Made by a program: the position numbers and the translations under genes. A model generated the notes under the pieces. That model made no database searches. It worked only from the letters and a program-made list of their open reading frames with translations, and was not told where the DNA came from. This document shows positions 19,832 to 28,577 of a DNA stretch of 64,000 nt, one piece after another. Source of the DNA: a phage; the sequence record PV636258.1; one strand, 5' to 3'. Numbering within the stretch: the first letter of the stretch is position 1; each line of letters starts with the position of its first letter.

Positions 19832-20686
19832 TTAGCTCCTTGTGCTTTCTAGGAATACAGTAAATCCAGCAGGATGGAAATGCTGACGGAAGACGCGCTC
19901 AAACACACCTTCAAAATCAGATACGTCGCCTGGGACTCCTATAACATAAGTGTATTCATCATAATAGTAATCATCACGCATCCCTGTCGTGCCGTCACAT
20001 TCAAAATTTCCGTCCAGACCGCCTATGTCTTCTTTCGTAAAATAGACGCTGACTGGACAACCGAAATATATCCAAAAGAACAATTCAATCGCTTTCTTTG
20101 TTCCACGTATTTTATAGATGTGTTTCAACAATTTCAGCCAACGCGGATGATCCAGAGTTCTCCGTTTCGTTCCTTCGATATAAACAGAGAACGTATCGCC
20201 CGTGGCCGTCAATAAAGAATCCGAACCGACTGGGATAAAATGTCCAAATTCTTGAAATGATTTATCAACAGTTCGTTGGAAACCAAAATCATTATACCAG
20301 TCATCTATCTGTTTGTTCTTATCTTCTATTGACAGTAGCGGCCTTCCGTCGGAATCTAAAAGTTCTTCGGCATCCAGAGCCATCATGTTCTCAAAGGTAC
20401 GAACCAAGAATTTATCAGACAAATAATCCTTGACCTCTGAGCCTGGGGTCTTGTCGGCCTTTAAATCAATCAGCTGCTTAACTGGAGAATCTTCACTCTC
20501 AGGATTCATCCAACTAGACGTATCTGCCAGATATGCCAAGATCTCTTCTTGAGTGAACCCCTGCTGTCTATACAACCAATTGAAGAACGTGTCCATAAAT
20601 TCTATGAACAGAGGGAAATCATTCTGGTAGAACAACGGAGTTTCATACTTAACCCCGTTGTGTCCATTATTAAGATCTTTGGACAT
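19832..20686 (-). CDS. Hypothetical baseplate-region protein
   Basis: ORF 19832-20719; start moved to ATG at 20686 (MSKDLNNGH) with GAGGTG SD; position between wedge-like and fibre genes. Confidence 0.5.
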   Translation of the reverse strand: MSKDLNNGHNGVKYETPLFYQNDFPLFIEFMDTFFNWLYRQQGFTQEEILAYLADTSSWMNPESEDSPVKQLIDLKADKTPGSEVKDYLSDKFLVRTFENMMALDAEELLDSDGRPLLSIEDKNKQIDDWYNDFGFQRTVDKSFQEFGHFIPVGSDSLLTATGDTFSVYIEGTKRRTLDHPRWLKLLKHIYKIRGTKKAIELFFWIYFGCPVSVYFTKEDIGGLDGNFECDGTTGMRDDYYYDEYTYVIGVPGDVSDFEGVFERVFRQHFHPAGFTVFLESTRS

Positions 20687-22451
20687 AGCGCACCTCTGGC
20701 GTAACAACCACATCACCAATCTTGAATACTTGGTTTTGTGTAGCCTGTATGTTCTGGTTCAGTCCATCCGGTAACACGACTATGGTCACCCCTTCAGGGT
20801 TATAGTTAGAGACCGTGATCTGCTGAAGGTCTACAACCCCATTTGCATAATCTACAACCCCTGTTTTTTGAACTAAAAACTCTTTTGTCGTGTCATTGTT
20901 ATTCACTTTATACATGTTCAGATCGCCATTATTGTCGCGCATGTAGTAAGTGAAATCCACCTCGGCAGGAAGCGGTTTGAACCCCGTTATTTTCACAGAA
21001 CCAGGTTTGATACTTCGTCCATAACTGAATGTGAAACTGTCTAAGACTCCATAATCAGGTTTGAAATGGCGTTTATAACCAACTGAAGTAATATTCGAGT
21101 TGATAGAACGTTCCATTTTTGTAATTGCTTCCTGCAATATTTCTTTGTCAAACAATTGGTCAAATCCGCCGAGATTATTTTCACCCCATTTAACGATACT
21201 GTTTCCAACAACAACTTTCATCTGTTCTTCAACGTAGACTGTAGAAGTAGGATCCCAAAATATAGTCGTCGAGACTTGGATATATGTGACCTCGGAGTCT
21301 ACTACTTTGGGGGTAATAGATCCCACATTATACTTGTCCAGAGCAGCAACGATATCGGCCTTCTCAGCGTCCGAAAGTGTCTCACCAACAGAAGGTATAA
21401 CAGCGATGTAAACATAGCCAGAATCAGGAGGAGACAGCGTGTCACCACCATATGATTTAGCTCGGGAGACGTTGGAGAATAACCTTTCAGTCAATACACC
21501 ATAATCTGTTTCTGTAACCGCAGCACCATCAGCCTGATAAGCTAAAGGAGCCAACCGTTTAGTGTCCTCAATAGATTCCGGATCGTCCCCACCTGCGCTA
21601 CGTTCGGAAACCAATTCTACATCGACCTGGTTAAACCCGCCTATGGATGACGCTGATGACAGGCTTGTGATATCATTCCCATCAGCACCAGAAGTTTCCA
21701 AGTATTGAAGGAATATGACGTTCCCATCTTCTACTCGACGCGAAAGATAACCATCTCCGAATTCAAACACATACAGACCGTCAATACCCAATTCTACGAA
21801 ATACAGGTAGGCATATTGGCTCAGATCAAATGGACTGTTGTAACGTTGATATGTCGTCGAAACGTCGGAAGACTCTGATTCTTGTACTTGCACGACCATA
21901 TGATTGATATCGACATTCCCAGAAGGAATCGTGTATGTTGAAATCGCGCTTCCTTCAACATCATATGTCTTGTACAACCAATTCCCCTGTATCAACTTTA
22001 CATTATTGAACATGTAATAACCGTCTGCGGTCAACGTTGCCGACACTGGTTTCTCAACAGTAAAGTTGTAGGAACTGCCGTCTTTTGCCCCAACGAACAT
22101 CACACGCCGATCCATAATGATCTCATTGGGTGCTGTGCTGGCGTCATAAGGCGTAACTTTGATGTTGACATACATGTATGCTGCCCGATAGTTGTCAGGC
22201 GTGTAGGAAAGAAATGCAGCAGATAAACCGACGTTTGAACGTTGATTTGCTGTCTTCAAATGGCCTTCACCATTAAGCATGTTTTGCATAAAGGCTATGG
22301 CGTTCGCGTCAGATGCCAACAAACGAATAATCGCACTAAGACCAGAACCTTCAAAGTCATAATCTTTAAAGGTGGGATCAGCTTTCATTCGCTGTTTAAT
22401 AATGTATTCAAATGCTCTGACGTCGAGTGAAGGAACTGTTTGCGTGGCCAT
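20670..22451 (-). CDS. Putative baseplate wedge-like structural protein
   Basis: ORF track starts at a TTG (22502); first ATG with good GGAG SD is at 22451 (MATQTVPSL). Assignment by size and position at the head of the late structural operon only. Confidence 0.5.
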   Translation of the reverse strand: MATQTVPSLDVRAFEYIIKQRMKADPTFKDYDFEGSGLSAIIRLLASDANAIAFMQNMLNGEGHLKTANQRSNVGLSAAFLSYTPDNYRAAYMYVNIKVTPYDASTAPNEIIMDRRVMFVGAKDGSSYNFTVEKPVSATLTADGYYMFNNVKLIQGNWLYKTYDVEGSAISTYTIPSGNVDINHMVVQVQESESSDVSTTYQRYNSPFDLSQYAYLYFVELGIDGLYVFEFGDGYLSRRVEDGNVIFLQYLETSGADGNDITSLSSASSIGGFNQVDVELVSERSAGGDDPESIEDTKRLAPLAYQADGAAVTETDYGVLTERLFSNVSRAKSYGGDTLSPPDSGYVYIAVIPSVGETLSDAEKADIVAALDKYNVGSITPKVVDSEVTYIQVSTTIFWDPTSTVYVEEQMKVVVGNSIVKWGENNLGGFDQLFDKEILQEAITKMERSINSNITSVGYKRHFKPDYGVLDSFTFSYGRSIKPGSVKITGFKPLPAEVDFTYYMRDNNGDLNMYKVNNNDTTKEFLVQKTGVVDYANGVVDLQQITVSNYNPEGVTIVVLPDGLNQNIQATQNQVFKIGDVVVTPEVRYVQRS

Positions 22452-22752
22452 GATAATCTCCATCACCTGAGTTTGAATATGGTGTTGAAGATATTTAGCC
22501 AACAGGAATCAAAACGCTCGCGCGCGTTTAATTTATTCGAATATACTCGCGAGGGGGCTGACGCCCTCGCTCGTAACACCGCCTTGACAGGCAGTCCCAT
22601 TCCACAGCCATGGAGGCTGCTTCTCGTTGTTCGTTAACACTCACAACTCGAAGGGCACCGCGTTAAGATACAGTTTCTTGATGTTGTAGAAAAGTAGTTT
22701 TTACCTATTAATAATCACTGTCATTATTTTATTGGCCATTCCTGCGTTTATA

Positions 22753-22786
22753 TTCAATAAACGTATCTCCAATATAATAACGGAGA
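22753..22786 (+). promoter_or_regulatory. TTCAATAAA box plus hairpin with TATAAT loop, candidate promoter for gene 22815-23384
   Basis: TTCAATAAA at 22753-22761, 11 nt, TATAAT at 22773-22778 lying in the loop of TCTCC/GGAGA hairpin; ATG 37 nt downstream. Confidence 0.45.
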
Positions 22787-22814
22787 CATTTAATCAATTC
22801 GGTGAGGCTCCGAA

Positions 22815-23384
22815 ATGCACATTAACACAGCAATCATGAAACACATTATTCCTTTATTGGCAAAATACGAAGGGGAACGTGCCACGAAAATCCCTTTTGG
22901 AACAATCACAGATGAAGTGAAACGCCTGACGGGTAAAAGTATCAATTTCCGTCGCGTTGTTGAATCTGCGTTAGAGTTGGCCCGTTCTGATTTACAAAAT
23001 CCAACATTTTCATTTAATATTGACGTAACTTCTTCACTTCGTCAAGAATTGGAAGAATCATCACAAGCGCGGCGCGATCGTTTCCGTCATTTATATGTTC
23101 GTAACGAATTCTCCGAAGGTCGTGTTGGTATGAAACTGGAGTCTATTCGTTCTGATATTTGCTTCACTGTCAACTATGTTTTAGAGCCAGAGAGCCAGCG
23201 CATTTATTTTGGCGCGATTATCGGTTTCTATGGGAACTCTATTAATGGTTGGGCAGAACGTGTTGGATTAAAAGAAACCCAGAACAATCATTCCACACCT
23301 TCTACCCATTATATGACGCATGAAGCTGCTGGCGAATATGTTTACCTTCTGCGTCGTGTTGTGAAGTTAGAAGTGTTAAAATAA
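22815..23384 (+). CDS. Hypothetical protein (189 aa)
   Basis: ATG-initiated ORF downstream of promoter-like element; no recognisable motif. Confidence 0.55.
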   Translation: MHINTAIMKHIIPLLAKYEGERATKIPFGTITDEVKRLTGKSINFRRVVESALELARSDLQNPTFSFNIDVTSSLRQELEESSQARRDRFRHLYVRNEFSEGRVGMKLESIRSDICFTVNYVLEPESQRIYFGAIIGFYGNSINGWAERVGLKETQNNHSTPSTHYMTHEAAGEYVYLLRRVVKLEVLK

Positions 23385-23441
23385 CGCTTTATTCAATAAA
23401 TAATTGTAGTAAAGTTAGTTGCATGGAAGGGAGGGAACACT

Positions 23442-23588
23442 ATGTTTTACATGATGTTACTCCTCATCCTCCTGATCGGGATTACCTGCTCTCTCCTGGG
23501 TCTACCCGATCAGTCCGGTAAACAGTTGCCCACTTCGGCGCATCCGGTTTTGAGTGAAGGTTCGTCCGCACTGCTGTGGGCAGTGTAG
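23442..23588 (+). CDS. Small hydrophobic peptide (48 aa), speculative
   Basis: ATG with GGAGGG SD 7 nt upstream; MFYMMLLLILLIGITCSLLGL predicted transmembrane; below the ORF-track length cutoff. Confidence 0.3.
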   Translation: MFYMMLLLILLIGITCSLLGLPDQSGKQLPTSAHPVLSEGSSALLWAV

Positions 23589-24409
23589 CTCAAAGGGGAG
23601 AGGACTTTTCAAATTAGCTGGGCTGTAGTATAGTAAATTTTATGGTGTAAAGAGTCGGGCGACCAGCGGTGTAAAGGCTGAGGCCAAGCACAGTCCTAGG
23701 ACGAGGACTCCGGCTCCATAAGTCAATATCCACCTCGCTGGTGTCAGTGGACGCACTTGACCGTCGGAGAACGAAACTCCCTGTTGTAGCGTGATTAGCT
23801 CAGAATCAGAGAGCACCCCGTTGGCAAGTCGACACCAGCATATAAGGGGAGGTCGGGGGCGCTAATCTCCATCACGCCGACAACATTATGAGTCTTCATA
23901 GAGGGTTCATAATGTTGCGTCAAAGGGCAACAAGGTTCCTGTTGGTAACATAATTATTCCTACTGTCTTCCCGGATTTTAGGAGCGCCAACAGGCGAGGC
24001 CGGATGCGTAAGTTCCGGCAAATCGATGGTGAGGTGGTGCATTGGTGACACGGGGTAGCGCCCAGAAGTGTGGTTCGATTCACACCCTCTCCAACAAAAA
24101 TAAAAGGTTTTATCAATAACGGGTTACAAAGTATAGTTAACTCACTGAACGGCAAGCTGTTTGAGTCCTGGCCACTCATAGCGATGTGAGACCAAGACAG
24201 GTAGGTTTAGGACTCAAACAGGTTTTCGTTCTCGTTGCTTGCGACTTTGCGGGTTTTTAGAAACTGACCACAAAGATAAATGCAAACGATAACACGTTCC
24301 TGGCAGTAGCTTAACAGCCATACACCAGTGAGGTCTTCCGATTCCTCATCACCAAATTCGGCGCACTAAAATAGACGGGAGGGTGTGATTAATAATCTCC
24401 CGTCGACGA

Positions 24410-24536
24410 TGCCGTTATATCTGACTGTCCAAAGGGGATAAGCTCCTGAGTAAGCAGAGGTGGGTTGCCTAAGTCAGATGGGATGTAAGGTCAGCGCTGG
24501 CCAAGCATTTGGGTTCGACTCCCTAAAACGGCTCCA
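24410..24536 (+). ncRNA. Extended tRNA-like element (about 127 nt): acceptor-like stem, T-arm-like hairpin and 3-prime CCA
   Basis: 5-prime GCCGTTA pairs 6/7 with AAACGGC placed directly after a GGG-TTCGACT-CCC T-arm; followed by T then CCA; body far too long for a canonical tRNA. Confidence 0.25.
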
Positions 24537-24623
24537 CATCTTAGAGGACATTGACAGGTGGAAGCATTTGGCGCCAAATGCTCGTGGCGGGTTCGAGTCC
24601 CGTGCAGTGTCCTCTAAGATGTG
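24535..24623. repeat. 16-bp perfect inverted repeat enclosing a tRNA-like core
   Basis: CACATCTTAGAGGACA (24535-24550) and TGTCCTCTAAGATGTG (24608-24623); interior holds 18-nt perfect palindrome GCATTTGGCGCCAAATGC and T-arm-like GCGGG-TTCGAGT-CCCGT. Confidence 0.7.
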
Positions 24624-24668
24624 AGCGAAGTCTTACCAATTGCCCTGATCTCTGGCAAGTGAAGGGCA

Positions 24669-24804
24669 ACGCAAATCGAAGTTCTCTGGGTATATCTTTT
24701 AACCCTCAAGGTCTGTACACAGAAGTGGCCGTCCCATGAGTAAGTTAGGCGATATACAACATGTTGGGTCGAACCTGTTAAGCCCAGAGAACTTCGATTT
24801 GCGT
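24669..24804. repeat. 22-bp perfect inverted repeat enclosing about 92 nt
   Basis: ACGCAAATCGAAGTTCTCTGGG (24669-24690) and its reverse complement at 24783-24804; nested 7-bp stem GTATATC/GATATAC inside. Confidence 0.7.
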
Positions 24805-25183
24805 ACTTGAGAGAGCGTTGTATGAAATAGGGCAATGCCTTGCAGACCTCGACGCCTACACATTCTAGACACTGGTGGGCGCTGGCGAAGATCTCAATAT
24901 AAGCTGGTCATCAAGGGTAGCTCCCTGACTAGACGAACAATGAGAGGCCGAACTAAGGGGAAACCCGAGACAGGCGCAGTATTTTCGAGTTCGCAAAACA
25001 GTGATCATCTGACAAGTGTGATCACTCTTCGATAGAGACATTACATCGTGGCCATCAACCACATCCTCGCTCTAGTGATGAGTGGTGTTATGTTTCTGTC
25101 GGCCAGCCTCGTTTGGTCCGAGCGATAGAGGACAAGTATTCTGTGTGACGAAGACATTGAATGCGAGTTGTAACATTTGGTTG

Positions 25184-25261
25184 CAACTTTGATGGCTCTG
25201 GATTTTATAAACCATGTCTATGGGTGACGCGGGATCTTTAGTACCAGAGCCATCAAAGTTG
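25184..25261. repeat. 18-bp perfect inverted repeat with 42-nt interior
   Basis: CAACTTTGATGGCTCTGG (25184-25201) and CCAGAGCCATCAAAGTTG (25244-25261). Confidence 0.7.
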
Positions 25262-25592
25262 TGTCCAACCCGATCTTGCAAGCCCGTATCCCTGTATGGT
25301 CAAGACTTGCAAGTGGAAAGCCCTGGAAAAATAAACGCCTGTGGTGAGGCTACGGTGCAAGCCAAAGACCCACAGAAGCGCGTTGCCGTGAGGCGCACAA
25401 ACAGGCATGCATGAACTGATCATGCACAAACGGGATAAAGGGTTGAGAGACCTTGGTTGGTCACAACATACAATTAATCCATAACGGGGAAGCAATATGA
25501 CTTGGCGACAGCGCGGATACAAAACCGTAGAATTGATTTAAAATTGCCGGCGTCCTGGTTGAGTGAGAGATCACTGCCGAAACCAGGAGGAA

Positions 25593-25618
25593 TGTGGGAG
25601 GGTAAATACCCTCCCACA
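25593..25618 (+). promoter_or_regulatory. Hairpin with TAAATA loop upstream of tRNA-Met
   Basis: TGTGGGAGGG-TAAATA-CCCTCCCACA; a second 11-bp inverted repeat CATATATGTTT/AAACATATATG (25628-25665) abuts the tRNA 5-prime end. Confidence 0.4.
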
Positions 25619-25664
25619 GACCAAGAACATATATGTTTGTGTATTTTTGTGCATAAACATATAT

Positions 25665-25741
25665 GGTCCTGTAGCTCAGTGGTAAGTAGCAGTGAACTCA
25701 TAATTCATTGGTCGTTGGTTCAAATCCAACCAGGATCACCA
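25665..25741 (+). tRNA. tRNA-Met (anticodon CAT; could also be an Ile-lysidine or initiator type)
   Basis: Hand-folded cloverleaf: acceptor GGTCCTG/CAGGATC (one G-T), anticodon stem GTGAA/TTCAT with loop CTCATAA, T-arm GTTGG-TTCAAAT-CCAAC, encoded CCA. Confidence 0.8.
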
Positions 25742-25778
25742 CTAAATAAACCAGTTGTTCAATAAACAATTGGTGAGT

Positions 25779-25979
25779 ATGATGAAAACGTTCGGTGATT
25801 TTCTTACTGAGTGGGATGGTCTAGCTACCGACAACAAAGAGATTGTTGAGTTTGTTGAAAAGCGAGGCGATAAGTGGGTTGTCCTTGACCACACCAAGAC
25901 TAAAGTTCTTGGGACACATGACACCAAAGCTGACGCCGACGCCCAATTAAGGGCGATCGAAGCGAACAAGCACGGATAA
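25779..25979 (+). CDS. Small hypothetical protein between tRNA genes (66 aa)
   Basis: ATG with GGTGAG SD; lies between tRNA-Met and tRNA-Asn. Confidence 0.4.
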   Translation: MMKTFGDFLTEWDGLATDNKEIVEFVEKRGDKWVVLDHTKTKVLGTHDTKADADAQLRAIEANKHG

Positions 25980-25980
25980 A

Positions 25981-26056
25981 GACGATGTAGTTCAGTCGGT
26001 AGAACGGCGGTCTGTTAAACCGTATGTCGCAGGTTCAAGTCCTGCCATCGTCGCCA
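25981..26056 (+). tRNA. tRNA-Asn (anticodon GTT)
   Basis: Acceptor GACGATG/CATCGTC, D-arm GTTC-AGTCGGTA-GAAC, anticodon loop CTGTTAA, T-arm GCAGG-TTCAAGT-CCTGC, encoded CCA. Confidence 0.85.
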
Positions 26057-26076
26057 AATAATAGTTGCAGGAACAC

Positions 26077-26568
26077 ATGAACACAAAACAGCGCGGGATG
26101 ATAGGTGAAACGAGGTTCCTGTTTAAATGTACAGAACTCGGGATCACAGTTTCACAACCTTTCGGAGATAATGCGCCATATGATTTTGTGATTGATGTGA
26201 ACGGTCGTTTGCTCAAGGTGCAATGTAAAACCTTGATGATGGACAAGAATACCTACCTTCTTGACGCAAGCACGACTAATTTCTACAACGGAAAATGCAA
26301 ATCCGTATACCATGGTGAGAAAGTTGATCTCTATTATGGTTACCATCCTGAAACTGGGATTGAAGTTTTGGTAGATCCGAAGCAATACCCTAAAAATTTA
26401 CGTTTGAGGGTGGAACCACCTAAAAATAATCAGGTGGTTGGGATCAAGTGGTTAAAGGATTTCCTGTTTGATAATGTTATCCAGGAAATTATGAATTATG
26501 GGTGTGAAACGAAAGCAAGTAAGCACGAAGTACGCGAACGACAAGTTCTCTCGAGCGACGTCCAATAG
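26077..26568 (+). CDS. Putative PD-(D/E)xK-family nuclease embedded in the tRNA cluster
   Basis: GETRF...PYDFVIDVNG...KVQCK pattern (E, D, D, Q-x-K) matching the restriction-endonuclease-like fold; AGGA SD before ATG at 26077. Confidence 0.45.
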   Translation: MNTKQRGMIGETRFLFKCTELGITVSQPFGDNAPYDFVIDVNGRLLKVQCKTLMMDKNTYLLDASTTNFYNGKCKSVYHGEKVDLYYGYHPETGIEVLVDPKQYPKNLRLRVEPPKNNQVVGIKWLKDFLFDNVIQEIMNYGCETKASKHEVRERQVLSSDVQ

Positions 26569-26569
26569 C

Positions 26570-27018
26570 CGAACGGAATCCGAACCCGACGAAAGTAACG
26601 CCCACCAAATTCAGAGTGTAGAGGCTACAGTAGTGCGCACCTCACGGAAAGCTACACCGGACACTCTGATACAAAATCTACCACCGCGTGGATTAGCTGA
26701 GGAAGGATGGCCGATGTCCTCAAGCGTGGCCCAGCACGTGGTGGTAGACCAAACACAGTAAGCGTTGCAGCCAGCTGTGTATAAAATGGGGTGACTCCAC
26801 ATCGGAAACGATGCCCCAACTTCCAGAAATGGTCGGGCGTGAAGCCTGTAAAGTTCCAGGAGATCAGACCAGAAGGCACTGGTCGCCTTGTTAACCAATC
26901 GACGCTTCGGCGTGGGGAGTTGGACAGGCAGATCAAATGCACAATCGGGTGTGAAGCCCGTCCATATTACGCTCGGTCAAGCAGTCTGTTTGTAGACGGT
27001 CGGTGCGGGTTTTGCAAG
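26570..27018 (+). ncRNA. Highly structured non-coding segment (candidate structured RNA)
   Basis: No RBS-supported ORF; multiple stable hairpins including UUCG loop (GACGC-TTCG-GCGTC region near 26905), GAAA loop (CATCG-GAAA-CGATG near 26795), 8-bp and 12-bp inverted repeats (26612-26669, 26689-26750). Confidence 0.35.
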
Positions 27019-27104
27019 ACTCGTTTAGGCTAACAAATGGATGAGGCGCGACTCTCTGGGTTGATCACCAGAGTGCTGGGGTTCAAATCCTCTAACGAGC
27101 ACCA
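27019..27104 (+). ncRNA. Atypical tRNA-like element (possible pseudo-tRNA or processed stable RNA)
   Basis: Clean 3-prime half: hairpin CTCTGG-GTTGATCA-CCAGAG, T-arm with TTCAAAT loop, 7-nt acceptor strand, ACCA; but 5-prime half does not give a canonical D-arm and the anticodon-like loop has 8 nt. Confidence 0.3.
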
Positions 27105-27110
27105 AACAAC

Positions 27111-27194
27111 GTGAGTGTGGCAGAGCGGTCGAATGCAGGAGACTGTAAATCTCCCCGTAACAGCGCGGTGGTTCAAATCCATCCACTCACACCA
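27111..27194 (+). tRNA. tRNA-Tyr (anticodon GTA), long variable arm
   Basis: Acceptor GTGAGTG/CACTCAC, 3-bp D-stem, anticodon stem GGAGA/TCTCC with loop CTGTAAA, long variable arm, T-arm GGTGG-TTCAAAT-CCATC, encoded CCA. Confidence 0.85.
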
Positions 27195-27270
27195 ATAAGT
27201 CGTTTCGGTCAGGTCAAGAACCCAGATTTAGGTCATGGCTTGGAAAATTCTTGACCGAAGCGCAGTATAC

Positions 27271-27359
27271 GGAAGGTTGCCCGAGAGGTTTAAGGGACTC
27301 GACTGCTAATCGAGTGGGGCTTTTAGCCCCCGAAGGTTCGAATCCTTCACCTTCCGCCA
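27271..27359 (+). tRNA. tRNA-Ser (anticodon GCT), long variable arm
   Basis: Acceptor GGAAGGT/ACCTTCC, anticodon stem CTCGA/TCGAG loop CTGCTAA, variable-arm hairpin GGGGC-TTTTA-GCCCC, T-arm GAAGG-TTCGAAT-CCTTC, encoded CCA. Confidence 0.85.
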
Positions 27360-27362
27360 AAT

Positions 27363-27448
27363 TGCTTCATAGCTCGAGTGGTAGAGCGCAGGAAAGTTTC
27401 GAGAGAACAAGGTGCCTGAGGTCACTGGTTCGAATCCAGTTGAAGCAA
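27363..27448 (+). ncRNA. tRNA-like gene with canonical acceptor, D and T arms but a 22-nt anticodon-region loop
   Basis: Acceptor TGCTTCA/TGAAGCA, D-arm GCTC-GAGTGGTA-GAGC, T-arm ACTGG-TTCGAAT-CCAGT all perfect; anticodon arm is a 4-bp stem CAGG/CCTG around 22 nt; no encoded CCA. Confidence 0.4.
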
Positions 27449-27458
27449 TCAGAATAAT

Positions 27459-27613
27459 GAGTGTGACTTCCTGAAGATGAAGAAGGTGTGCATGCCGACT
27501 TCATAACAATCTGGGGTTAAGGAAGTTAAGAAAGTCGCAGGATATGCAAGTGAAATGCAAATAGCTTTCAACGTCCTGACGATTTCGGGTTCGATTCCCG
27601 ACGCACTCTCCCA
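27459..27613 (+). ncRNA. Candidate stable RNA with tRNA-like ends (about 150 nt)
   Basis: GAGTGTG at 27459-27465 pairs (one G-T) with CGCACTC placed directly after T-arm TCGGG-TTCGATT-CCCGA; followed by T and CCCA; lies between the last tRNA-like gene and the terminator at 27674. Confidence 0.25.
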
Positions 27614-27673
27614 AACGCCTAATACCAGAAATTGCTGTGAGTAGTCTTTCCATCCCCACGATGGTTTAACCAT

Positions 27674-27704
27674 AGCCCGATCAGGAAGATCGGGCTTCTT
27701 TTTG
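27674..27704 (+). terminator. Intrinsic terminator closing the tRNA/stable-RNA cluster
   Basis: AGCCCGATC-AGGAA-GATCGGGCT hairpin followed by TCTTTTTG. Confidence 0.7.
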
Positions 27705-27743
27705 TCTATAATAAATAGATCTGACTTGTAAAGGAGGTCTATT

Positions 27744-27980
27744 ATGGCAACTGCTAAGATCATACCAAACGCAAGTACATGGACACAAGTCTCAGACGGA
27801 ACATCTTTGAAAACTCTTCAAGTGACTCACGGTTCTGTGTATTTAACCGATAACCCAACTGCGCCAGCCGCCAACGCCCCTGCGCATATCATTCTACAAG
27901 GAAATATCATTGTCTTGACTCCTCCTACAGTTGGATGGATAAAGAGCGCTAGTGGTGTTCCTGTTGTGATATTATCATAA
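27744..27980 (+). CDS. Small hypothetical protein (78 aa)
   Basis: ATG with strong AAGGAGG SD. Confidence 0.5.
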   Translation: MATAKIIPNASTWTQVSDGTSLKTLQVTHGSVYLTDNPTAPAANAPAHIILQGNIIVLTPPTVGWIKSASGVPVVILS

Positions 27981-27990
27981 GGAGAGGGAT

Positions 27991-28506
27991 ATGCCCATAT
28001 TAACCTTTCCAATTATGGGAAATATGTTTCAGACCAAACGCGTGAAAAGTGAAGTTCGGTTTACTGGTCTGTCTCTCAATATCCCAACAGGTACAACAGG
28101 AGTCGATTTATTATCGTTATTTGTTGGAAAAACTCCTGTTGCTGGTTCTACAACAATGGCACCGTTCTTTGATTTGTCTGCTAACAAATTCAAAGTCTTT
28201 AATAATGATTCAACTGTCACATTGAAAATAAATTTGATAGGATCATGGCAAGGGACCACCAATAACCGAACATTAGAAATAAATTTTGTTGGGTCGGTGG
28301 GGAACCAATTAACAAAAAGTCGAGACGCTGCATTAACAGGTCAAGATATTTTATCATTTCCTACATTCTTTAGTGTTGACAAGAATGGGAATTTAGCGAC
28401 AAATGGGAGTCAAATTATTGCCAGATCTTATGGTAATGATTTTACTATCACGGAAGCTATTTTCATCGCAGAACAAATGGTCCCGTTATACATGAATTCT
28501 ATTTAA
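27991..28506 (+). CDS. Hypothetical protein (171 aa)
   Basis: ATG with AAGGAGAGGG SD; beta-rich Thr/Asn/Gly sequence. Confidence 0.55.
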   Translation: MPILTFPIMGNMFQTKRVKSEVRFTGLSLNIPTGTTGVDLLSLFVGKTPVAGSTTMAPFFDLSANKFKVFNNDSTVTLKINLIGSWQGTTNNRTLEINFVGSVGNQLTKSRDAALTGQDILSFPTFFSVDKNGNLATNGSQIIARSYGNDFTITEAIFIAEQMVPLYMNSI

Positions 28507-28577
28507 TTTGTTCAAACTTGAAAGGGGGTTTAAAATTTAACCGTTTATAAACCCCTTCATTGATTTGAGGAAACAAC

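Follow-up and report, generated by a model that had tools for sequence, protein, structure and literature searches.

A nuclease gene of the I-Ssp6803I family in the tRNA cluster of Salmonella phage PM10: a probable free-standing homing endonuclease gene

What is a nuclease gene doing in the midst of the tRNA genes of a bacteriophage? In Salmonella phage PM10 (Kuttervirus, Ackermannviridae) an open reading frame (ORF) begins 20 nt past the CCA end of tRNA-Asn and runs into structured sequence. The original prediction for this locus took it to be a mobile endonuclease that occupies, with a different fold, the niche held by segB in the tRNA cluster of phage T4. Our analysis covered a 64-kb stretch of this genome (PV636258.1), to which we refer throughout as the window. 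The answer that we consider probable is that ORF 26077-26568 encodes a free-standing homing endonuclease of the I-Ssp6803I (PDDEXK_5) family and is lodged in the 4 nt that separate tRNA-Asn from the next structured RNA.

The nuclease gene and its neighbourhood

Five tRNA genes occur in the window, and the nuclease gene sits among them, with tRNA-Met and tRNA-Asn on its 5' side and tRNA-Tyr, tRNA-Ser and an unusual tRNA on its 3' side (Table 1). Positions 25600-27500 are 100% identical in Salmonella phages vB-SalM-PM10, Chennai and SM5 (Kuttervirus). The 66-aa ORF that precedes tRNA-Asn has no Pfam match and, because relatives without the nuclease have it too, lies outside the inserted cassette. 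ARAGORN calls the unusual tRNA solely with its intron option, as an intron-bearing tRNA; it is entered in GenBank as 'tRNA-OTHER' and is conserved in relatives without the nuclease. The hairpin downstream of it is likely the end of the transcription unit that comprises the tRNAs and the nuclease gene.

Table 1. Features of the PM10 tRNA cluster around the nuclease gene, in window coordinates.
Feature	Position	Strand	Basis or remark
tRNA-Met(CAT)	25665..25741	+	First in cluster; ARAGORN, Rfam 63 bits
Conserved hypothetical ORF, 66 aa	25779..25979	+	Between tRNA-Met and tRNA-Asn
tRNA-Asn(GTT)	25981..26056	+	ARAGORN, Rfam; left border of insertion
Inserted cassette, 441 nt	26057..26497	+	Alignments, identity profile, GC
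AGGA Shine-Dalgarno-like motif	26069..26072	+	4 nt 5' of ATG; read from sequence
Nuclease ORF, 163 aa, PF11645/I-Ssp6803I family	26077..26568	+	ATG start
Nuclease core, 140 codons, confidently folded	26077..26496	+	Alignments, dN/dS, pLDDT
Putative active-site residues	E11 26107-26109; D36 26182-26184; Q49 26221-26223; K51 26227-26229; D84 26326-26328		Roles assigned from alignment to 2OST
C-terminal read-through tail, 23 aa, encoded by conserved flank	26498..26568	+	pLDDT <50, predicted disordered
Conserved structured stretch, with or without nuclease	26498..27110	+	Fold z = -3.9 versus shuffles
Parts of the structured stretch: closed domain; hairpin; tRNA-like 3' part	26500-26605; 26606-26675; ~27020-27105	+	Within 26498..27110
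tRNA-Tyr(GTA)	27111..27194	+	ARAGORN, Rfam
tRNA-Ser(GCT)	27271..27359	+	ARAGORN, Rfam
Unusual fifth tRNA, ~13-15 extra nt in anticodon-loop region	27363..27448	+	Rfam 48.7 bits
Terminator-like hairpin	27674..27696	+	Followed by T run

The longest mechanical ORF begins at a TTG at 26065, and alignments of homologues begin at the ATG. Residues 1-131 of the product match the Pfam profile PF11645 (PDDEXK_5) over its positions 1-137 of 138, with an E-value of 7.2e-25 and 88 bits against a cut-off of 26.1. This was the sole match in a Pfam search of the protein, which returned neither a GIY-YIG domain nor Hjc; the protein also matches phrog_5018 (E 1e-35), a group listed as of unknown function. Its sole sequence match in the PDB is 2OST (I-Ssp6803I; E 6e-8), with which it has the pattern ...YD(F/L)V.D..G.LLKVQxK in common, D36 and Q49-C-K51 aligning with YD...VQVK of 2OST. 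An AlphaFold (AF2) model made with 7 homologues as input has a mean pLDDT of 81 and is confident over residues 1-142. Its best PDB matches in Foldseek are chains A-D of 2OST (E 2e-10 to 1e-7, TM 0.60-0.75), followed by SPARDA nuclease domains and Hjc resolvases at E ~1e-3 (TM ~0.4 for Hjc). The 8 distant homologues from phages and archaeal viruses (27-81% identity) all have G7, D36, L45, Q49, K51, D84 and Y89, and all except that of Acinetobacter phage Herod have E11. Profile, fold and D...(E/Q)xK residues all place the PM10 nuclease in the PF11645/I-Ssp6803I family. Database records of the gene can be re-annotated: the copy in phage FKP10 (positions 2501-2932 of locus L006) is labelled 'methyltransferase' in GenBank, which its Pfam match does not support, and most records of other copies read 'hypothetical protein'.

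Other parts of the cluster vary as well. A second polymorphic block (25450-25720) has ~190 nt 5' of tRNA-Met without homology to phage S117, and the tRNA-Met genes of PM10 and S117 differ by many paired (compensatory) substitutions. In Cba120 the start of tRNA-Met is overlapped by orf221 (L110, 234-647), an HNH_3 gene (E 2.6e-13); just 5' of tRNA-Met in cp19 lies a zinc-finger ORF of 220 aa (L005, 1164-1826) that matches Phage_endo_I weakly. The tRNA cluster is a hotspot for genes of homing-endonuclease type, the Cba120 and cp19 nucleases filling other slots within it.

Three alleles at a junction between RNA genes

Alignment with relatives reveals three alleles at one junction: empty, occupied by a 142-nt RNA element, or occupied by the nuclease cassette. 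The empty site, in which the ...CGCCA end of tRNA-Asn is followed by GACA and then by ATGGGTGTG, is found in maane (Kuttervirus), Menlow and IME250 (Taipeivirus), where the sequence 3' of GACA reads ATGGGTGTGAAACG. Phages S117, S8 and Cba120 carry the 142-nt tRNA-like element at the same junction, and the nuclease cassette measures 441 nt in PM10, cp19 and CBA6 and 442 nt in FKP10. Its GC content is 39.5%, against 44.4% for the window. On either side of the swap PM10 and S117 are ~100% identical for ~300 nt, and the intact gene-less junction sequence is absent from the PM10 window. Homology to the gene-less phages restarts at 26498; the PM10 ORF therefore ends in 71 nt of flank sequence, and the mobile unit is 26057-26497. 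The read-through tail that they encode is missing in CBA6, FKP10 and E. coli phage 241 (Ec241), whose ORFs end at a TGA inside ATGGGTGTGA. At its right border the cassette abuts the 5' end of a closed RNA domain (GGGUGUG...CGCCCAC), and it therefore fills the only few nucleotides between two RNA genes. In some lineages a short direct repeat marks the cassette ends (GACAAT on the left, CCAGACAAT on the right), for which we claim no mechanism.

A search of 20000-32000 with Rfam (E<=1) yielded no group I intron or ribozyme, just tRNAs and chance-level matches, and the nuclease gene is therefore free-standing. We rejected an intron-encoded nuclease in the manner of I-Ssp6803I: there is no intron, tRNA-Asn is complete and the cassette replaces a 4-nt intergenic spacer. 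A pseudo-palindrome at the empty junction (CCATCGTC-GCCA-GACAATGG, 7/8 symmetric) was also set aside as a target; by a rough estimate that takes in the positions and spacers scanned it is about what chance would give. It is weaker in Taipeivirus and is kept as a lead only.

The 142-nt element that occupies the junction in other phages (S117; L002, 3390-3531) does not occur in the PM10 window. Phage records that have it number 102, with 90% identity even in Limestonevirus of Dickeya, where it follows tRNA-Met, and it is without RNA annotation in the records read. By eye it has an acceptor stem and a T-arm-like hairpin. As a tRNA or intron-bearing tRNA it was rejected, being called neither by Rfam nor by ARAGORN (intron, relaxed) and having a fold z of -1.0, and we leave it as a 'tRNA-like conserved element'.

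On the far side of the cassette, the longest ORFs of 26498-27110 are of 80-96 aa or less, and this stretch is ~100% conserved relative to S117. Because phages without the nuclease have it too, it is where the element landed rather than a piece of the element. The original prediction, of a PD-(D/E)xK nuclease gene placed just past tRNA-Asn among tRNA genes and followed by structured non-coding sequence, is upheld on the nuclease, its setting and the non-coding flank, with one refinement: the coding frame runs into that flank. Covariation within the stretch is limited, the sequences being too similar. Two of its sub-segments (26606-26675 and 26671-26753) are swapped in Taipeivirus (window 26606-26968 versus L005 3028-3503 and L004 3177-3616), and in phage 241 a tRNA-Tyr lies between the non-coding sub-segments. 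Since sub-segments are permuted and interrupted in this way, they would be shuffled RNA modules, and the alignments suggest that they are separate RNA units. The 3' part (27020-27105) resembles a degenerate tRNA, with GGGGTTCAAATCCTC as a T-arm-like sequence and a ...GCACCA end, and is called by relaxed ARAGORN only.

A further structured region lies 5' of tRNA-Met at 24660-25480 (more widely, ~24000-25660). It has no long ORFs, a fold z of -7.7 versus shuffles and a number of very long, near-perfect hairpins, among them those at 24669-24805 and 25169-25280; conservation in S117 and S8 is 98-99%, and no Rfam family matches. Positions ~24000-27700 are in effect an 'RNA island' with two supported genes only, the 66-aa ORF and the nuclease.

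How widespread is the nuclease at this junction? Close copies (at least 78% amino-acid identity) were found by tblastn in 9 of 50,697 phage records: PM10 (two records), Chennai, SM5 and SPTD1, E. coli phages 241 and CBA6, and Klebsiella phages cp19 and FKP10. The junction of tRNA-Asn and right flank is present in 222 records (query at least 80% covered), so that ~4% of the genomes having the locus carry the nuclease, and the carriers are spread over two genera. A sample of 60 of 478 records was read row by row. A comparison of presence and absence among relatives, put forward with the original prediction as the way to check it, thus reveals a clear polymorphism, with empty sites in both genera.

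Selection, transfer and competing explanations

The nuclease ORF is intact in five lineages. Two apparent defects were dismissed: the Ec241 copy is not start-less, having a TTG start with GGCGGA upstream, and the supposed frameshift in FKP10 is just a different stop (after ..WV) slightly inside the flank, with no disruption. Pairwise dN/dS is 0.03-0.06 at dS of 0.06-0.56, and by this measure the gene is under strong purifying selection.

The history of the cassette departs from that of its surroundings. Over the nuclease core, identity is 98.6% between CBA6, a Kuttervirus of E. coli, and FKP10, a Taipeivirus of Klebsiella. In sliding windows the tract of 97-100% identity coincides with tRNA-Asn plus the nuclease gene; outside it the left side has 55-88% identity and the right side 82-92%, with ~78% in the neighbouring backbone. 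The acceptor stem of tRNA-Asn in CBA6 is of the Taipeivirus type. Between phages cp19 and Menlow identity is 99% on either side (right, 99.3%) except for the cassette and 400 nt of left flank, in which cp19 has 75% identity to Menlow and 87-91% to PM10. Furthermore, CBA6 and Ec241 have a distinctive right-flank haplotype that includes a 1-nt deletion, which their gene-less relative Cba120 does not have. These alignments make it well supported that the nuclease gene has moved between phage genera, with tRNA-Asn. Gene conversion that a homing endonuclease initiates, and that takes along the flanks to a varying extent, would leave such tract patterns; they are consistent with it without being proof.

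FKP10 also contains a perfect 1000-bp tandem duplication (L006, 380-2379) with tRNA-Met, tRNA-Arg and two small ORFs. It ends ~120 nt 5' of the nuclease gene and ~25 nt 5' of tRNA-Asn, and a tRNA-Trp spans its end. The duplication recalls, by analogy, the amplification of tRNA segments driven by SegB, but it could be an assembly artefact.

Under the homing explanation, the nuclease gene would share a transcript with the tRNAs and be translated by means of a Shine-Dalgarno sequence of its own. In a cell infected by both a PM10-like phage and a related gene-less Ackermannviridae phage, the ~140-aa enzyme would cut the gene-less allele at or near the junction of tRNA-Asn and the downstream RNA, acting, by analogy with I-Ssp6803I, as an oligomer on a long and partly symmetric site. 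Recombinational repair from the carrier genome would copy the cassette into the cut genome, sometimes with flanking markers such as tRNA-Asn, and the carrier would be protected because the insertion splits the junction. As the flanks of PM10 and S117 are identical, a target lying wholly inside one flank would leave the carrier unprotected. For the PM10 nuclease we infer DNA cleavage, target position, carrier protection and biased inheritance; what is observed is a polymorphism at one locus with exact boundaries, together with movement at odds with phylogeny and co-transfer of flanks, the marks by which free-standing homing endonuclease genes of the seg/mob type are recognised. Sequence evidence in the form of the polymorphism, a homing-endonuclease family, purifying selection and a tract common to two genera therefore favours the mobile endonuclease originally proposed. 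On this evidence the PM10 nuclease would be a well-supported and fairly ordinary selfish gene of an already known type. With three alleles, identical flanks and culturable phages, the locus offers a test case for a free-standing PD-(D/E)xK homing endonuclease.

Some of these observations also fit other explanations. Where flanks are identical, ordinary homologous recombination with no nuclease can also swap a cassette cleanly, and a low frequency (~4%) combined with long purifying selection (dS up to 0.56) is also compatible with a maintained accessory function. The nuclease might have been co-opted, its breaks in the tRNA region driving recombination, the exclusion of markers of competing phages or segmental amplification of tRNA genes that offset host defences aimed at tRNAs; this is unlikely, though it keeps a small share of our belief and can coexist with homing. 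The low dN/dS over such divergence would suit it, as would the travelling of tRNA-Asn with the gene and the tandem duplication just 5' of the nuclease in FKP10, and there is a precedent in phage T6, where SegB amplifies a tRNA-Tyr segment and thereby escapes Septu, segB itself being tRNA-associated (PMC13096335). Yet a gene that so few Ackermannviridae genomes possess is not generally needed, the duplication, besides its possible origin in assembly, is absent from cp19 and PM10, and no defence system is known to take part at the PM10 locus. Somewhat less probable again is an ordinary accessory nuclease whose substrate is not the rival allele but, for instance, the host's DNA or, as for Hjc, recombination intermediates, and which owes its patchiness to general recombination. 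The tRNA region is indeed a strong mosaic in which RNA modules are permuted, tRNA sets vary and further indels occur, and Hjc resolvases are weak structural neighbours of the model. The nearest relative in both sequence and fold, however, is a proven homing endonuclease, far above Hjc. We rejected an Hjc-type resolvase on the Foldseek values (E ~1e-3 and TM ~0.4, against 2e-10 and 0.7 for 2OST) and the lack of a Pfam match to it. Nor does general recombination sit easily with exact insertion boundaries at one spacer in two genera, a near-identical cross-genus tract limited to the gene and tRNA-Asn, or the recurrence of family members beside tRNAs in unrelated viruses.

The adjacency to tRNAs might instead reflect RNA processing, with the nuclease maturing the transcript of the tRNA operon. 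Such a role would account for the strong same-strand association with tRNAs (270/273, see below) and could find an object in the odd tRNA with an extended anticodon loop at 27363-27448, and the PD-(D/E)xK superfamily does take in tRNA-splicing endonucleases (PMC3424549). But by far the most gene-less relatives also have the tRNAs, the odd tRNA and the structured RNAs, and the characterised member of the family cuts DNA, which makes this role very improbable. As for a spurious ORF or decaying pseudogene, to which the 'hypothetical protein' of most GenBank records might point, it is already refuted by the Pfam match (E 7e-25), intactness in five lineages, dN/dS of 0.03-0.06 and a confident fold, and we give it practically no weight. 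Homing by a free-standing endonuclease is the explanation that we retain.

tRNA partners across the family and comparison with known systems

In the phage collection, all distant homologues are encoded within or next to a tRNA cluster and on the strand of its tRNAs. The gene overlaps the start of tRNA-Ile in My1 (T5-like) and tRNA-Met in phi-pp2 (KVP40-like); it lies 45 nt before tRNA-Asn in J2-1, 21 nt after tRNA-Arg in Herod and 138 nt before tRNA-Arg in EFP01, 1 nt after tRNA-Asn in the haloarchaeal tailed virus HSTV-4 and 197 nt before tRNA-Ala in HATV-2. A word-indexed protein search returned 7 proteins. A wider family set, for which the related-locus search was built on a 5-sequence alignment, comprises 98 loci in 44 clusters at 60% identity from phages, the IMG/VR, Logan and JGI metagenomes and four MAG loci, none of the added metagenome and MAG loci having been picked for tRNA content. 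A tRNA lies within 300 nt of the nuclease in 23 of the 44 clusters, and 270 of the 273 tRNAs at the 98 loci are on the strand of the nuclease. The density of tRNAs at family loci is 0.93 per kb, against 5 in the whole 64-kb window. A spacing of 17-26 nt after the 3' end of a tRNA is common, and tRNA-Asn is the commonest upstream neighbour (5 clusters); ~40% of clusters show no tRNA, many of these being on short contigs. One large metagenomic group lies 23-26 nt after tRNA-Lys(TTT), often with tRNA-Asn just 3' (L033, L035, L041, L047, L050, L057, L058 and L078). There are hints of clade-specific tRNA partners within the PDDEXK_5 family.

A broader reading, which we advance tentatively as possible but short of probable, is that targeting the DNA of tRNA genes is a trait of the whole PDDEXK_5 family, with the intron-borne I-Ssp6803I and the free-standing genes forming one lineage that carries and maybe amplifies tRNAs. 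If so, free-standing genes may land ~1-26 nt 3' of tRNA genes in both bacterial and archaeal viruses, and may carry neighbouring tRNA genes, mostly tRNA-Asn, between phage genera, with rearrangement or amplification by analogy with SegB. A second, structurally unrelated nuclease family would then be shaping the tRNA repertoires of phages, and homing endonucleases may be a general force that moves and rearranges phage tRNA genes. Our literature search found no paper describing the PM10 nuclease locus or a tRNA association of the PDDEXK_5 family, and it is this link to tRNA clusters that we consider most worth following.

To our knowledge, I-Ssp6803I is the sole characterised homing endonuclease of the PD-(D/E)xK class. 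The PM10 nuclease resembles it in Pfam family, in best sequence and fold match, in the D...QxK pattern, in size (~140-150 aa) and in its link to tRNA genes. Sequence identity between the two, however, is only ~24%, and I-Ssp6803I resides in a group I intron in the anticodon loop of Synechocystis tRNA-fMet, whereas the PM10 gene is free-standing beyond an intact tRNA-Asn. I-Ssp6803I, encoded by an intron in a cyanobacterial tRNA gene, is a tetramer with a 23-bp pseudo-palindromic target, and the genes for homologues close to it lie for the most part in cyanobacteria (PMC3384342); PF11645 introns are found in tRNA-fMet (PMC13011429). Closer in genomic habit are the PDDEXK_5 genes of Jug jumbo gut phages, which belong to the same Pfam family, stand alone in phage genomes and are counted as homing endonucleases; they differ in being listed by domain annotation, with no polymorphism, tRNA context or transfer reported in the part of that account consulted (PMC12880540). 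Archaeal Hjc has the superfamily core fold in common with the PM10 nuclease, as a weak structural neighbour.

The nearest counterpart in way of life is SegB of phage T4, a free-standing GIY-YIG homing endonuclease in the tRNA cluster that recognises a TpsiC-containing site and carries tRNA genes along (PMC2330249). Its family is significantly tRNA-associated, and the amplification of tRNA segments can escape Septu defence (PMC13096335). Both are free-standing nuclease genes among phage tRNA genes, missing in close relatives, transferred together with a neighbouring tRNA and drawn from a tRNA-associated family; by this analogy the two likely spread in the same way. They differ in fold, GIY-YIG in SegB and PD-(D/E)xK in PM10, and in that the activity, target and biased inheritance of SegB are experimental. 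We rejected the PM10 nuclease as a member of the SegB/GIY-YIG group, no GIY-YIG domain being present, and regard it as a putative functional analogue only. The parallel with segB drawn in the original prediction is nonetheless apt: a similar niche in a phage tRNA cluster, filled in T4 by a GIY-YIG gene and in PM10 by one of PD-(D/E)xK fold.
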